Part shown: positions 5,760-40,886 of the stretch, piece by piece
How positions within the stretch are numbered: position 1 is the first letter of the stretch
Layout of the letters: each line of letters opens with the position of its first letter
Source of the DNA: Deltaproteobacteria bacterium
GTDB taxonomy: Bacteria > Desulfobacterota > Desulfobacteria > Desulfobacterales > ETH-SRB1
Reading direction: 5' to 3'
Length of the DNA: 44,826 bases
NCBI GenBank assembly: GCA_030606805.1
Contig: JAUWFS010000003.1
Coordinates: forward strand, 1 to 44,826
Notes under the pieces: generated by a model
Database searches by the model: none
Told to the model about the DNA's origin: nothing
Seen by the model: the letters and a program-made list of their open reading frames with translations, nothing else
Translations under genes and position numbers: made by a program

Positions 5760-5865
5760 TATAGACTTTCAGATAATTAATTTCACTGTGTTATCAGTCG
5801 TCGACGTATAACTAATACGCCTTCCTCCTTCTGGCCTTGTGAAATGAATTATCTGAAAGTCTATA
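5760..5865 (+). mobile_element. 106-bp MITE-like palindromic element, family T (core A), copy 1
   Basis: 27-bp terminal IR TATAGACTTTCAGATAATTAATTTCAC / GTGAAATGAATTATCTGAAAGTCTATA; near-identical copy at 11752. Confidence 0.85.
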
Positions 5866-5888
5866 AATACCCTTAAAAAATCAGAGAT

Positions 5889-7370
5889 ATGGGTTTTGCT
5901 TTTCTTGAAATGGGATCAAAAGCAAATAAAATTCAAATCGTCATTATCTTATCTTTCTTTCTTATAACCTGCGGTTGTTTTTCTCATGACAAATACACTT
6001 ACGAAAGCATCAGGCAGGAATATGCAAAAGTAATATGCGATGATGCGTTTTCAACAAAAGTTTCAAAAACCGAACAATATACCTGTGCTTTACAAGAACC
6101 TGTCTCTTTGAACGATGCAATTCAAATTGCTCTTGCAAATAATCCTGATAACAAGATTGCCGTTGCCCGCATAAAGCAGGCAAAAGCTATGATCGAAAAG
6201 GCAAATGCTAACTTTTTCCCCTTTCTTGGATTTTATACTCAATATTCTCAGGGGGATGCACCATCAGGATATCTTTTCAAGAAGATTGACCAGAGACTGC
6301 TGCCTGCAAATGTAGATTTTAACTCTCCAGGCTGGTATGAAAATTATGAGACCGGAATTAAAGCAGGAATAAATATATTCAATGGCGGACGAGACATTTT
6401 AAATAAAAAAATCGCTGAAACCGTTTTCTCTATTTCTCAGATAGATAGAAAAAGCGTAGAAAACTCCCTTGTTGCCTCAGTAATACATACATACTATAAC
6501 GCTCTTGCCGCAAAAGAATATATTAAAATTACCAGGGACTCCGTATCAACTGTTAAGTCGCAACTGCGTCTAATGAATGTGAGGTTCAGAGCCGGAGGAG
6601 TTCTAAAATCAGACATATTATCCCTGGAAGTCCGTCTTGCTCAAGCCAGGGAAGACGTAGTCCTGAGTGAAAACAGGCTAAAAACAGCTCTAACTGCTTT
6701 TGCCGGTATTCTCGGTGTAAGCCCCGAAACTGAAATCAGACTTAAAAAAATAGAAAGCCGCGAAATCCCCTTACCAAATGAATACATTGCCGGTGTTGCC
6801 TATGCCCTTGAAAACAGGTCTGAAGTTAATAAAATTAAGGAACGTATCAAACAGAGCAGAATGGCTCTTGATCTGTCTCGTGCAGAATATCTGCCCAGAG
6901 TTGATCTGCAAAGCAAATACTATGTTGATGATCCTGAAATGGCTTACAATGACTCAAGAGACAACTGGATTGCGGCAGTCATATTTAACTGGGACATATT
7001 TACAGGCTTTAGCACAAAAGCAGAAGAAGAAAAAGCAAAAGCCAGGCTTGAAGAAATGCTGGCAGCAGATCTCAAAACCAGACTATCTGTAAAGCTTGAT
7101 GTTAAAAATGCCTACCTGAAACTGGCGGAAGCAAAAGCCAGGCTCGAGGTAGCGGAAAAAAGCGTGGCCATGGCTGAAGAATCTTTTAAGCTTGTCAGAA
7201 AACAATATGAAGGCGGCGCTGCTACCATAACACGATACTTTGAAGCCGAGCTTGCGCTTAATCGAGCAAAGACTCGAACAACGGCAGCTTATTATGACAG
7301 GGAAAAGGCTCTCGCGGATATTGGCAGAGCGGTAGGTTACTGGGGGAAGGTGAATAAAATCACACCATGA
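5889..7370 (+). CDS. TolC-family outer membrane efflux protein, probable lipoprotein; start may be 5910
   Basis: Hydrophobic N-terminus with Cys, SLNDAIQIALANNP, two OEP-like repeats (VIHTYYNAL, DVKNAY); first gene of a tripartite operon. Confidence 0.9.
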   Translation: MGFAFLEMGSKANKIQIVIILSFFLITCGCFSHDKYTYESIRQEYAKVICDDAFSTKVSKTEQYTCALQEPVSLNDAIQIALANNPDNKIAVARIKQAKAMIEKANANFFPFLGFYTQYSQGDAPSGYLFKKIDQRLLPANVDFNSPGWYENYETGIKAGINIFNGGRDILNKKIAETVFSISQIDRKSVENSLVASVIHTYYNALAAKEYIKITRDSVSTVKSQLRLMNVRFRAGGVLKSDILSLEVRLAQAREDVVLSENRLKTALTAFAGILGVSPETEIRLKKIESREIPLPNEYIAGVAYALENRSEVNKIKERIKQSRMALDLSRAEYLPRVDLQSKYYVDDPEMAYNDSRDNWIAAVIFNWDIFTGFSTKAEEEKAKARLEEMLAADLKTRLSVKLDVKNAYLKLAEAKARLEVAEKSVAMAEESFKLVRKQYEGGAATITRYFEAELALNRAKTRTTAAYYDREKALADIGRAVGYWGKVNKITP

Positions 7371-8506
7371 AAAACAAAAAAATTGTAATAATATTGTTGT
7401 GTTCCGTTAGTTTAATTTTAGTTTTCTTTGCTGTTAAATTCATTTCAAGTACAAAAATTGCGCCGGGCAAGTTTCAGGCTGCATCAAAAAATGATGTGTC
7501 ACCGAAAAATATTGGACAAGCATCTGTCCGGACTATAACCGAATGCTATGAGGCTGTTGGAACAGTGCGCCCTGTTACAGAAGCGAGTATCGAATCCCAG
7601 GTAACTGCTCAGGTTCTTGATGTCAAGGTCAGACCCGGCGACAAGGTTTTTAAAAACCAGCTTTTAGTATCTTTAGATAACAGACAGTTGATGTCACGTC
7701 TTGATCAGGCAAAACAAACCTTAAAAACAGCCATATCAGGAAAAAAACAGGCAAAACAGACAATAATAGCCGCCAGCGCGGCATTTTCAGAAGCTGAATC
7801 TGATTATAAACGTATAGAAATTTATTTTGAATCCCAGGCAGCTACCCCTCAAGATATGGAAAAAGCCGAATCAGCATTCCTTCAGGCAAAGGCGACTTTA
7901 AATAGAGCTAAAGAAGCTTTGTCAGCTTCAAAATCCGGAATAAAACAGGCGGAAGAAATCGTAAAGGAGGCGGGAATAGCACTTGGATACACAGAGATAA
8001 GAGCACCTGAAAGCGGTAAGGTTTTAGAACGTCTTGTTGAACAAGGAGATTTAGCCCTGCCCGGAAAGCCTTTAATTATACTGCAAACTACCGGCTCGCT
8101 CAGGCTTGAAGCATATGTACGTGAAGGACTGATCAAAAAGATTCAGCCCGGAACATTTCTTAAAGTAACAATAAATACTTTGAATGAAACAGCGACGGCA
8201 ACGGTTGAGGAGATTGTCCCTTATGCTGATCCGCAAACACGAACTTTTCTTGTAAAGGCATTATTGCCGCATATATCCGGAATATATCCCGGCATGTTCG
8301 GAAAACTGCACATCCCTGTTAAAGACCTCCAGGTTGTTGTTATACCAAAAATTGCCGTTCGTAATATAGGACAGCTTGAACTAATTACAGTAAAGGAAAA
8401 TAATTTCTGGAAGACACGTTTTATTAAAACCGGCAAAACTTTTGAAGATAAGGTCGAAGTTCTCTCCGGACTATCCGGAGATGAGACAATAGGCTGGGAG
8501 GAATAA
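7367..8506 (+). CDS. RND periplasmic adaptor (membrane fusion protein)
   Basis: N-terminal TM, VRPGDKV, coiled coil, YTEIRAPESGKV, ADPQTRTF, VEVLSGL. Confidence 0.92.
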   Translation: MKNKKIVIILLCSVSLILVFFAVKFISSTKIAPGKFQAASKNDVSPKNIGQASVRTITECYEAVGTVRPVTEASIESQVTAQVLDVKVRPGDKVFKNQLLVSLDNRQLMSRLDQAKQTLKTAISGKKQAKQTIIAASAAFSEAESDYKRIEIYFESQAATPQDMEKAESAFLQAKATLNRAKEALSASKSGIKQAEEIVKEAGIALGYTEIRAPESGKVLERLVEQGDLALPGKPLIILQTTGSLRLEAYVREGLIKKIQPGTFLKVTINTLNETATATVEEIVPYADPQTRTFLVKALLPHISGIYPGMFGKLHIPVKDLQVVVIPKIAVRNIGQLELITVKENNFWKTRFIKTGKTFEDKVEVLSGLSGDETIGWEE

Positions 8507-8510
8507 CTTA

Positions 8511-39521: not shown

Positions 39522-39570
39522 GAAATAAAAAAAAGGGGGGAGGGAAAATACTTCCCCCTTTTTTTATTTC
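39522..39570 (-). terminator. Intrinsic terminator after qmoC
   Basis: GAAATAAAAAAAAGGGGG...CCCCCTTTTTTTATTTC. Confidence 0.75.
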
Positions 39571-39582
39571 AACTATATATAT

Positions 39583-40713
39583 TTATCTGTTTGCATACTC
39601 TGCATACGCCATAGCAACTGTTCTGTAAACTATATGGGCCAGCTTTGAAAATGGCAGGAATGCGAACAGGTTGAATACAAATACAAGATGTATAAAATAC
39701 ATAAAATATGAAAGGCCGGCAGCACCTGCAAGCCTGGTCATTTCAGTAAGCATTCCAGTCAAACCAAGACCAAGAACGAGTCCCAAAAGGTACCAGTCTT
39801 TATAACTGGTTGACTGAGTGGTTTTGGCTAACCGGTTTTTTATCATCAGGATACTACCGATAACCAGAGCTATACCACTAACATTGGCAAGCCATTTAAC
39901 AGGGTTTAATTGTGAATAAGGACCATGTATCTGGAAAACGTACAATACAACAAAGAAAATATTTGTTACAATAAAAAGTCCTATAAATGCATAAAATACC
40001 ATAAGATGTGCTGTAGCACGGTCTTTGTTTTCACCGCACTCTGTAAACTTGCTGTGTTTTAATATTGTGGGTAAAATGCGAACCAGTGCCTGAAGAAAAC
40101 CACCAAGCTCCAATCTGCTTTTATCTGTCTTCCCTTCACGCACCGCACTCTCATGCATGTCTTTTATAAATCTGTTAAGTCCCATAGCAAAGATGGCTAT
40201 GACCCATACAGTAAGCGGTACAAAAATCAGATCAACCAGCCATGAGGAAAAGAAATGAGAATGTACGATCTCTTCTCCGCCAGGACTAAAATTCATTAAG
40301 CCTGTTATATAGCCCAGAACCACAAAAATAACTACCGGGATAAGCAAAAGAACAGGCAGTTTCCCTGGATCATTAACTGCTTTAGCCAGCCACTTCGGAA
40401 CTGCATACTCAGAAATAGCATAAGAACGAATAGCTCCCAACACATCACCTGGATTTGCACCGCGGGGACATTGTGTTGAACAGTCTCCACACTGATGACA
40501 AAGCCATATGTCCAGGTTGCTTACAAGTTTATCCTTTAGGCCCCATTGTGCAGCTATCATCTCTTTTCTTGGAAAAGGTTTATTATCCGGAGAAATAGGA
40601 CAAACCACAGAACAGGTAGCGCACTGGAAGCATTTTTTCACATCACCGCCCCCAAGCCTGACAATTTCTTTAACAAAATTTACATCAGGCTCAACCAGGT
40701 ACTTATCAGCCAT
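39583..40713 (-). CDS. qmoC: Quinone-interacting membrane-bound oxidoreductase subunit C
   Basis: CFQCATCSVVCP, WLCHQCGDCSTQCP, six TM helices, PFSKLAH. Confidence 0.96.
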   Translation of the reverse strand: MADKYLVEPDVNFVKEIVRLGGGDVKKCFQCATCSVVCPISPDNKPFPRKEMIAAQWGLKDKLVSNLDIWLCHQCGDCSTQCPRGANPGDVLGAIRSYAISEYAVPKWLAKAVNDPGKLPVLLLIPVVIFVVLGYITGLMNFSPGGEEIVHSHFFSSWLVDLIFVPLTVWVIAIFAMGLNRFIKDMHESAVREGKTDKSRLELGGFLQALVRILPTILKHSKFTECGENKDRATAHLMVFYAFIGLFIVTNIFFVVLYVFQIHGPYSQLNPVKWLANVSGIALVIGSILMIKNRLAKTTQSTSYKDWYLLGLVLGLGLTGMLTEMTRLAGAAGLSYFMYFIHLVFVFNLFAFLPFSKLAHIVYRTVAMAYAEYANR

Positions 40714-40744
40714 ATTAATACCTCCTATTGACTACTGATTATTT

Positions 40745-40886
40745 GAAACCTTTGCAAAACGCCCCATTTTGCCCAATTTCATCGTCAGACTCAAATTTTA
40801 AGCCTCGAAATACTCAATGTATTCCTGCATTTAAAATTTTCGCCTTCCTTGAACTTGAACAAAATTGTGCATTTTTCAAAGGTCTC
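40745..40886 (-). mobile_element. ~140-bp palindromic element with core A inside the qmo operon
   Basis: IR GAAACCTTTGCAAAA / TTTTTCAAAGGTCTC; minus-strand centre AGGAATA-N7-TATTTCGA (40805-40826). Confidence 0.7.

Follow-up and report, generated by a model that had tools for sequence, protein, structure and literature searches.

Why should short palindromic elements with unrelated ends carry the same oriented centre? The question arises in a 44,826-nucleotide stretch of contig JAUWFS010000003.1 (the window), where a sequence-only reading had noted three element types built around one asymmetric core, AGGMRTA and TAYKTCGA separated by 7 or 8 nucleotides, and had proposed hairpins whose bulged apex is recognized by a trans-acting enzyme while the arms are free to vary. 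All four core sites of that reading were recovered at their positions, three with an N7 and one with an N8 spacer. The core is far commoner than chance, with four matches in the window vs. none in 100 dinucleotide-preserving shuffles, and 92 matches in the whole 3.1-Mb genome. Permitting an N6 spacer as well raised the genome count to 116 (reversed-pattern control, 0), and a looser, structure-aware form of the motif gave 173 matches vs. 23–43 in five shuffles. The three element types proved to be genuine multicopy families with differing terminal inverted repeats, and the single oriented centre common to elements with different ends was found in at least six families in this genome. It was also multicopy in 9 of 100 other Desulfobacterota genomes belonging to different bacterial families, with 7–26 matches each, while the reversed-pattern control never exceeded two; in 20/20 instances examined the apex lay at the centre of a long hairpin.

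Two copies in the window belong to subtype A1 of a foldback MITE family that we call A. The first (5760–5865, minus strand, nhmmer score 123) comprises an element TAGAC...GTCTA at 5762–5863 with TA on either side and a 27-nt terminal inverted repeat, TATAGACTTTCAGATAATTAATTTCAC; its apex hairpin, A-GGCGUAU-UAGUU-AUACGUC-GA, occupies 5801–5822 (minus strand, N7). The second (11752–11857, minus strand) has an apex of the same sequence at 11793–11814 (minus strand, N7), and an ORF on the plus strand starts 13 nt downstream of it. A degenerate copy at 19067–19186 (plus strand, nhmmer score 50) resembles A2, a longer subtype of ~126 bp, and has a decayed apex that no longer matches the motif. Family B is represented by a 3' terminal fragment at 3593–3640 (minus strand, HMM positions 127–174 of 178) and by a copy at 36945–37110 (plus strand) with ends CCTAAG...TTTAGT, decayed flanks and no visible target duplication. 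The apex of this copy, A-GGCGUA-CCUGUGGA-UAUGUC-GA, lies at 37021–37043 (plus strand, N8). Nested in its 5' arm, a GC-rich mini-hairpin, GTCCTGCCTGGGGCGGGAC (36990–37010, plus strand, loose ends at 36993), stands where GCAAGGTTTGC is usual in B; an insert of this type was also present in one other B copy (contig C242). Family C contributes a 142-bp element at 40745–40886 (minus strand) with ends GAGACC...GGTTTC on the core strand and the apex A-GGAAUAC-AUUGA-GUAUUUC-GA at 40805–40826 (minus strand, N7). It is flanked by a 5-bp target duplication, TATTT on the left (40740–40744, one change relative to TATTG) and TATTG on the right (40887–40891).

Across the genome, the apex-bearing families number at least six (A–F). 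Searches with nhmmer located 94 A, 75 B, 41 C, 34 D and 78 E loci, a total of 322 loci covering 39,950 bp (1.29% of the genome); family F has two copies. The elements are non-coding and multicopy, 102–215 bp long, and scattered singly across ~200 contigs among unrelated genes. They lie mostly between predicted ORFs, although 15 A–C copies overlap an ORF call by more than half. Many family E copies are at contig ends. Nested or mosaic copies are common: besides the mini-hairpin in B, inserts of 25–45 nt occur within family C, and a group II intron lies inside one of the E copies.

Each family has its own terminal inverted repeats of 17–27 nt and its own target duplication, which is TA for A, TWA for D and E, and 5 bp for B and C. 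Identical 5-bp flanks were seen in 22/40 B copies, where a shuffled-partner control averaged 2.3 with a maximum of 7. For E, the flanks were identical, as TAA or TTA, in 23 of 26 copies (the control averaged 13.5, with a maximum of 19), and for D the TWA flanks were identical in 13 of 16 (control mean 8). The signal for C is weaker than for B, D and E, with identical 5-bp flanks in 3/13 copies and one mismatch in a further seven (control mean 0.4). For A, the TA/TA flanks found in 66 of the 73 copies with both ends located cannot be separated from an extension of the inverted repeat. A comparison of filled and empty loci yielded one clear case, the C copy of the window. Contigs from two of four metatranscriptome runs join position 40743 straight to the right flank, continuing with sequence that starts GAAGACAGGCTAT; a related strain thus has the empty site, ..TATTG|AAGACAGG, with a single TATTG. 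No clean empty site was found for a family A copy in 12 genomes of the same genus. The idea that the arms are free to vary is not supported for the ends: every family has terminal inverted repeats of its own, target duplications are fixed, and there is a precise filled/empty polymorphism. We regard it as very probable that the elements are foldback MITEs moved through their ends.

What, then, is conserved in the centre? The shared core is a 6–7-bp apical stem, GGYRUA/UAYRUC, atop a long hairpin, and consists of a G-C pair, a G.U wobble, two covarying pairs, U-A and A-U. The stem is bordered by an unpaired A on the 5' side and GA on the 3' side, and its loop is variable; it is not the bulged loop that the earlier reading had supposed. 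Of the two strands, the one carrying the core gives the more stable fold in 77/80 A, 42/42 B and 24/24 C copies. Other genomes supplied 85 distinct C copies, in which 97.5% of cells were paired, double-sided changes occurred in 11 of 26 pairs vs. 1–4 in shifted controls, and G.U cells outnumbered A.C cells by 283 to 28. B copies likewise averaged 7.5 G.U vs. 2.4 A.C. The apex pairs covary between families (CG/CG, CA/TG, AA/TT) and inside the D lineage, where GGCGTAG..CTACGTC in another genome (G101) corresponds to GGAATAGC..GCTATTTC in the genome studied here. Because G.U far exceeds A.C, a single strand appears to be selected as a single-stranded fold, and with compensatory changes both within and between families we think it likely that the interior is selected as the fold of one strand. 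The arms are unrelated, as first described, only at the termini. Short motifs of the inner arms reappear in more than one family: upstream, CAAGG was counted by eye in 16 of 24 rows, and downstream there is ACGC.G.A.AU.GG / AGAU (also by eye).

The level at which this constraint acts can be approached from the decay of the copies. Rare variants per site-copy, as sums pooled from the per-family rows A–D, were as frequent in the apex (~0.0215, 68/3,168) as in the inner arms (~0.0216, 202/9,335). Element orientation was random, whether judged against GC skew (98:89) or against flanking genes (48 sense, 61 antisense); in family A, an unexplained antisense excess was seen relative to co-directional flanking genes (32 antisense, 15 sense). 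Since resident copies decay evenly and are randomly oriented, selection appears to bear on lineages as they propagate. B derivatives that have lost the centre number only six, with at least four different junctions.

We then asked which enzymes could move these elements. In a closed genome from another bacterial family (G061), an apex-bearing MITE of 184 bp is represented by 14 end pairs 180 bp apart, and one extra MITE end is found where a 1690-bp IS terminates; the transposase encoded by this IS is of the DDE_Tnp_1_4 (IS1380-family) type (E 1e-156). MITE and IS agree at 18/20 terminal bases, and the MITE interior is absent from the IS. By our own arithmetic, such a match (an 18-mer with two mismatches) is expected ~0.2 times per genome by chance; we find it convincing because it is located at both IS termini. 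For this one family, the match points to end-reading DDE transposases, not to HUH or integron enzymes reading the apex. No parent IS was found for families A–E in the genome studied here, a fragmented assembly of 255 contigs in which ISs may be unassembled. PF13358 and PF13359 had no match in this genome, PF13701 only a C-terminal remnant, and the termini of seven PF01609 loci matched none of families A–C, to which that comparison was limited. There was also no parent IS in 835 kb of other Desulfobacterales loci, nor in G101 for its D-type MITE. IS1380-family genes did not co-occur with motif-rich genomes (4/10 vs. 23/91). Because no parent element is visible in the genome, any enzyme would act in trans, a point on which the sequence-only reading holds, and we infer that the transposases moving A–E are of DDE type and encoded elsewhere. 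A DDE transposase working on double-stranded ends offers no obvious reason for a strand-specific fold.

The reading that we favour, at a probability of roughly 0.6, is that these repeats form a two-module foldback MITE superfamily of the Desulfobacterales and the wider Desulfobacterota, with an inner hairpin serving in cis for element spread or persistence. The outer module would be the family-specific terminal inverted repeats, used by DDE transposases encoded elsewhere, each of which would leave its own target duplication of TA, TWA or 5 bp. The inner module would be a long hairpin with imperfect pairing, conserved from family to family and over the phylum, that ends in the apex A-[GGYRUA...UAYRUC]-GA and is probably selected as the fold of one strand, either as single-stranded DNA or as RNA. 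Most likely it would serve as a recognition site for a conserved host factor, or as a site that nucleates the fold. For action of the inner module in cis for propagation, taken by itself, we see even odds; the need for the apex, and what would read it, are presumed. A bolder version makes the hairpin, with its apex and tandem-G.A loops, a portable cis-acting module, one folded strand of which is read by a factor conserved in Desulfobacterota and which confers amplification or maintenance on any flanking ends. We put this forward tentatively, as doubtful; if true, it would describe a selfish structured element riding at least three transposase systems.

A rival explanation is an RNA. A structured RNA (a protein-binding decoy, small regulatory RNA, processing site or ribozyme) might hitch-hike on several transposon chassis, the MITE ends serving only to spread it. 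The strong preference for G.U over A.C fits, as do the tandem G.A motifs (AGAU/AGAU, GAGCGA/GAGCGA; by eye) and the conserved unpaired bases that are typical of such RNAs. Folded DNA, however, accommodates stable G.T and tandem G.A as well. Contigs of four metatranscriptome runs contain the elements, but these contigs give no strand, ends or level. As a precedent, MITE transcripts that form stable hairpins give rise to small RNAs in other bacteria, according to the review PMC10969869. Against an RNA stand the random orientation relative to flanking genes and the lack of a conserved promoter or terminator, as judged by eye. The apex is not extra-conserved in resident copies, which argues against a function of each copy, and we do not think that resident copies each serve the host. 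No Rfam family matched: at the gathering score only two tRNAs pass in the window, and E-value scans of three elements returned nothing or microRNA-like hairpins of 12–30 bits, below cut-offs of 33–100. We consider the RNA explanation unlikely.

The enzyme originally proposed, an HUH/Y1 protein such as RAYT or an integron-type recombinase acting in trans on folded single-stranded DNA with irrelevant arms, would explain why the stem foot and flanking bases are conserved around a variable loop in a strand-specific fold, why most genomes show no parent IS, and why constraint on propagating lineages resembles that on a cis-acting recognition site. Y1_Tnp-domain ORFs also exist, of ~250–330 aa in the genome studied here, G061 and G109, with two shorter ones (186 and 202 aa) in G098. 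Yet Y1/HUH and tyrosine recombinases (IS200/IS605, REP/RAYT, attC) are not known to leave target duplications or terminal inverted repeats of the kind seen here, where duplications of 2, 3 or 5 bp are fixed and the termini of one family match a DDE IS of the IS1380 type. Element lengths of 102–215 bp exclude cutting at a fixed distance from the apex. Nor did Y1/RAYT genes track the elements: none of the seven Y1_Tnp matches in this genome has elements on both sides, five have none within 5 kb or on the contig, and the shortest distances to an element are 195 and 474 bp, while G101, which is 100% complete and has 18 motif matches (one identical core in 13 among the matches listed), has no Y1_Tnp match. 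Such an apex-reading enzyme is very improbable. Less so, though still improbable, is a functionless centre, in which one ancestral foldback MITE was repeatedly re-packaged into new IS ends by nested insertion and then deletion, and palindromes simply transpose or survive better. The frequent nested insertions and mosaics, the sharing of termini alone with the G061 IS and the even decay of resident copies agree with it. But arms and loops have diverged beyond recognition, from family to family and over the phylum, with no change to the unpaired A and GA, the G.U wobble or the UA/UA pairs, and neutral descent would neither spare unpaired bases nor yield a 10:1 excess of G.U over A.C.

The two-module reading would matter because it is normally the ends that define a MITE, with the interior regarded as filler, whereas here the conserved part is the interior: one strand-specific hairpin common to families with apparently different transposase types, in several families of the phylum. 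If the module promotes the spread or survival of elements, it would be a new principle for the success of non-autonomous elements, and would imply that sulfate-reducing bacteria of cold seeps and sediments have a factor reading folded DNA or RNA. For practical purposes, the repeats (~1.3% of the genome) break assemblies and are a ready marker for strain-level insertion polymorphism.

How do these elements compare with known systems? Like REP/REPIN sequences with RAYT, they are extragenic palindromes in many copies, in which the hairpin foot and the bases beside it are conserved and action in trans is presumed. REPs are not known to carry terminal inverted repeats or target duplications, and the RAYT gene is typically flanked by its own REPs; the present elements have clear target duplications and terminal inverted repeats, and the Y1 genes are unflanked. 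Integron attC sites are likewise read as a one-strand fold and have variable arms with few conserved positions. Their conserved boxes are at the base, however, and they lie in cassette arrays beside the integrase, whereas here the apex is conserved and solitary copies, each with its own target duplication, are scattered through intergenic DNA. At its termini, the G061 MITE resembles an IS1380-family element (DDE_Tnp_1_4, PF13701), and the 5-bp duplication of families B and C fits that family (ISfinder); unlike it, the elements are protein-free, their interior is absent from the IS, and PF13701 does not track motif-rich genomes. Domain V of group II introns, a short hairpin with a CGUA/UACG stem and a conserved G.U beside a G-C near the foot, resembles the apex. 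We rejected it as a relative, as the apex has neither a 2-nt bulge nor a GNRA loop, its loop is variable and Rfam intron models were unmatched.

In form the elements are also like the foldback MITEs Correia/NEMIS of Neisseria, ERIC/IRU of enterobacteria, Chunjie of Geobacter uraniireducens and QMITE2 of Coxiella, which form long hairpins too. Bacterial foldback MITEs are described, in the reviews PMC3184786 and PMC10969869, as non-coding, multicopy, intergenic elements of ~100–235 bp with terminal repeats, target duplications and very stable hairpins, on which related ISs are thought to act in trans. Chunjie has 21-bp repeats and 9-bp duplications. In contrast to these known foldback MITEs, the present elements fall into at least six families that differ in their ends, with target duplications of three classes, but have in common one conserved interior, which is kept by compensatory change and is present in other families of the phylum.

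We scanned the window for the motif AGGMRTA-N7/8-TAYKTCGA and recovered, exactly, all four positions given by the sequence-only reading: three on the minus strand (5801-5822, 11793-11814 and 40805-40826) and one on the plus strand (37021-37043). A search of 100 dinucleotide-preserving shuffles of the window gave no match, whether with N7 or with N8. The assembly of the ETH-SRB1 genome to which the window belongs (3.11 Mb in 255 contigs, 40% G+C, 95% complete and 1% contaminated) contains 92 matches, or 116 when N6 is allowed, and none to the reversed pattern. A looser, structure-aware pattern gave 173 matches, compared with 23–43 in five shuffles.

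Sorting the flanks of the 92 matches defined three families of foldback MITEs, A, B and C, to which mutated and partial copies were added with nhmmer profiles; families D, E and F, missed by the original spacing rule, were uncovered by the looser pattern. Family A (ends TATAGACTTTCAG...) comprises subtypes of ~107 bp (~62 copies) and ~126 bp (~13 copies) as well as rarer forms, and has window copies at 5760-5865 and 11752-11857, both minus. Family B (~160 bp, ends CCTAAG...CTTAGG, two subtypes) is represented at 36945-37110 (plus), and the 142-bp family C, whose subtypes differ in their termini (e.g. GAGACC.. or AGTGCC..), at 40745-40886 (minus). Family D elements are 179–194 bp with ends GGGCTCGG.., family E elements are 180 bp with ends GGAACGTGG.., and family F has two copies of ~131 bp. 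Beyond the four copies already noted, the window holds a decayed copy resembling subtype A2 (19067-19186) and a B fragment (3593-3640). Two tRNA genes (37827-37911 and 37929-38018; Rfam tRNA, 57 and 59 bits) lie between its B and C copies. Genome-wide there are 94 A, 75 B, 41 C, 34 D and 78 E loci, a sum of 322 covering 1.29% of the genome. Contigs end ~140 bp away from many E copies, so these repeats break the assembly.

When folded, each element forms a single long hairpin, imperfectly paired, whose tip is the motif. There the motif is a stem composed of a G-C pair, a G.U wobble, two variable pairs, a U-A pair and an A-U pair; at least one further pair often extends it. The loop varies, and the stem has an unpaired A before it and GA after it. 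The variable pairs covary by family, being CG/CG in A, CA/TG in B and F, and AA/TT in C, D and E. Subtype A3 replaces the wobble with G-C, and one C subtype replaces the closing G-C with G.U. Similar substitutions are seen in other Desulfobacterota genomes: in G098 the pairs just inside GGCGUA/UACGUC co-vary as GC/GC, GG/CC, TT/AA and TG/CA, and the D lineage has the apex GGCGTAG..CTACGTC in G101 vs. GGAATAGC..GCTATTTC in the genome under study. Across 85 distinct family C copies taken from other genomes, 97.5% of alignment cells are paired over 26 predicted arm pairs, and 11 pairs show double-sided changes, compared with 1–4 when partners are shifted; because these copies were retrieved by an exact match to the 24-nt C core, the set is no independent test of the apex. 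By eye, short inner-arm motifs also recur between families, with CAAGG upstream in 16/24 rows and ACGC.G.A.AU.GG plus a paired AGAU/AGAU downstream.

The fold is strand-specific. In 77/80 A, 42/42 B and 24/24 C copies the core strand, which reads the motif, forms a more stable fold than the opposite strand does. The C alignment contains 283 G.U cells vs. 28 A.C cells, and B copies average 7.5 G.U vs. 2.4 A.C; the arms of family A show no G.U excess over A.C. Selection on an inverted repeat in double-stranded DNA would treat both mismatch types alike, so the excess indicates that one strand has been selected as a single-stranded fold, and either DNA or RNA would be compatible with this.

Flanking direct repeats have one fixed length per family, and we compared them with controls in which flanks were re-paired between copies of a family. 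In family B, 5-bp flanks are identical in 22/40 copies and differ by one base in six more (control mean 2.3). Matching TAA or TTA flanks are found in 23/26 family E copies (control mean 13.5, maximum 19), and family D flanks match in 13/16 (control mean 8.0). In family C of the GAGACC type, 3/13 flanks are identical and seven have one mismatch (control mean 0.4). Family A has TA/TA flanks in 66/73 copies, which fits a TA duplication but equally a longer inverted repeat. The elements are thus transposons and, judged by what IS families are known to do, duplications fixed at 2, 3 and 5 bp point to three or more kinds of DDE-type integration. The parent ISs would be expected to be IS630-like for A, IS5-like for D and E, and IS1380-like for B and C. 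The comparison of filled and empty loci suggested by the sequence-only reading succeeded for one window copy. The C copy is polymorphic: in two of four metatranscriptome runs, all available as contigs, contigs connect position 40743 directly to right-flank-like sequence, giving an empty site ..GAT-TATTG-AAGACAGG.. vs. TATTT-[142-bp element]-TATTG in the window. No empty site was found for the A copy in relatives, where the flanks are rearranged.

Some elements carry inserts of their own. One E copy (C200:4472-5588, locus L146) is split by a ~940-bp GC-rich insert lacking ORFs, for which Rfam gave a group II intron match (group-II-D1D4-4, 46.8 bits vs. a cut-off of 49, E 6e-9). The insert lies on the downstream side of the apex, ~35 nt away, and runs in the direction of the core strand. 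In two B copies (window 36990-37010 and C242:931-1021) a GC-rich mini-hairpin resembling GTCCYGCCTGGGCGGGAC replaces part of the 5' arm, and is either a smaller nested mobile palindrome or the mark of a B sub-lineage. On contigs C25, C118, C201, C81, C188, C10, C205 and C225, copies of family C have 25–45 extra nucleotides within the 3' arm; these share recurring pieces, e.g. ..CACGAAGTGAAGC..TAGCGCT.., and are a further small inserted module.

When the three window copies were compared by BLAST with 40 relatives, 24 from the same family and 16 from other families of the order, the A and B copies each matched 23/24 and 1/16 genomes, respectively, and the C copy matched 24/24 and 9/16. The exact 24-nt C core matched at least 120 stretches; the matches listed are mostly from Desulfobacterales, Desulfobacteraceae and unclassified Deltaproteobacteria/Proteobacteria MAGs, and include Eth-SRB, Ca. 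Desulfaltia and Ca. Desulfatibia. In a sample of 100 genomes across the phylum, nine had 7–26 motif matches (reversed control, two at most), one from the window's own family and eight from eight other families. The apex was central in a long hairpin in all 20 instances examined, taken from five of these nine genomes.

No parent IS was found in the genome under study: PF13358 and PF13359 gave no matches, none of the seven PF01609 loci had the ends of families A–C, and PF13701 was present only as a C-terminal remnant without matching ends. Multicopy proteins there were glycosyltransferases, AAA_35, RhuM, sigma-54 activators and histidine kinases, with no transposases among them. Terminal-repeat scans found no end pairs more than 260 bp apart, barring one gene between two D ends and the intron-split E copy. 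This absence is weak evidence, since ISs may have dropped out of so fragmented a bin, built from short reads. Half-elements spaced 0.5–4.5 kb apart were also absent from 145 other Desulfobacterales loci (835 kb), and no D-type parent was found in G101, where all unpaired D-type ends were ordinary copies of ~180 bp. The closed 4.24-Mb genome G061, from a different family of the phylum, has an apex-bearing 184-bp MITE with 14 end pairs spaced 180 bp. One further end lies at the terminus of a 1690-bp IS encoding a 459-aa DDE_Tnp_1_4 (IS1380-family) transposase (E 1e-156). IS and MITE agree at 18/20 bases at one end and 15/17 at the other, and their interiors share nothing. In G061 at least, the MITE thus borrowed its ends, but not its interior, from an IS. 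PF13701 did not co-occur with motif richness (4/10 motif-rich genomes vs. 23/91 others). Beside the G061 IS (L169:2110-2300), a ~34-nt repeat (GGAACCACTGACCTGATTCAGAAGGGATTGCGAC) occurs three times, interspersed with unique spacers of about its own length; this resembles a CRISPR array that abuts the end of the IS.

The sequence-only reading had inferred a trans-acting enzyme that recognizes the apex, and had pointed to HUH enzymes such as RAYT and to integron integrases as readers of folded ssDNA. A survey of PF01797 (Y1_Tnp) in five genomes gave matches in four of them (7 in the genome under study, 12 in G061, 6 in G109 and 2 in G098) and none in G101, despite its 100% completeness and 18 motif matches. 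No Y1 gene in the genome under study is flanked by elements. Given these results and the target duplications, a mechanism of the RAYT or integron type is unlikely, although such an enzyme might yet have a part in the role of the apex. What stands of the modular palindromic elements is a conserved, folded and oriented center with no parent found; their ends, however, are ordinary transposon ends, and the HUH link falls away. Five ORFs of ~160–330 aa on contigs C160, C156, C161, C83 and C76 match the Y1_Tnp domain weakly (E 1e-9 to 1e-15), and G061 and G109 have comparable ORFs. Typical IS200 transposases are shorter.

Is the fold maintained in every copy? In resident copies, pooled over family A–D rows, rare variants per site-copy are ~0.0215 in the apex, ~0.0216 in the inner arms and 0.030 in the termini. 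Orientation is random with respect to local GC skew (98:89) and co-directional flanking genes (48:61), and six B copies have lost their center through at least four different deletions. The even variant rates, random orientation and few center-less copies suggest that the fold matters to propagating lineages rather than to each resident copy. Between co-directional genes, family A alone leans antisense (15 sense, 32 antisense). Summed metatranscriptome depth over B and C bins is 40–100-fold higher, which is the copy-number expectation and thus uninformative about expression.

Apart from the two tRNAs, Rfam returned no family for the window at gathering score, nor did it for any of the three window element types at E up to 10. 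Compared by eye, the elements did not fit the hammerhead (CUGAUGA..GAAA), other small ribozymes, the k-turn, group II intron domain V, the CsrA GGA motif or the IHF consensus. The literature searched reported neither MITEs in Desulfobacterales nor an interior common to MITE families with different ends. The question of interest is what reads the apex. Two reviews (PMC3184786, PMC10969869) describe bacterial MITEs that form stable hairpins and are tied to ISs through their ends, among them Chunjie of Geobacter, which has 21-bp repeats and 9-bp duplications.
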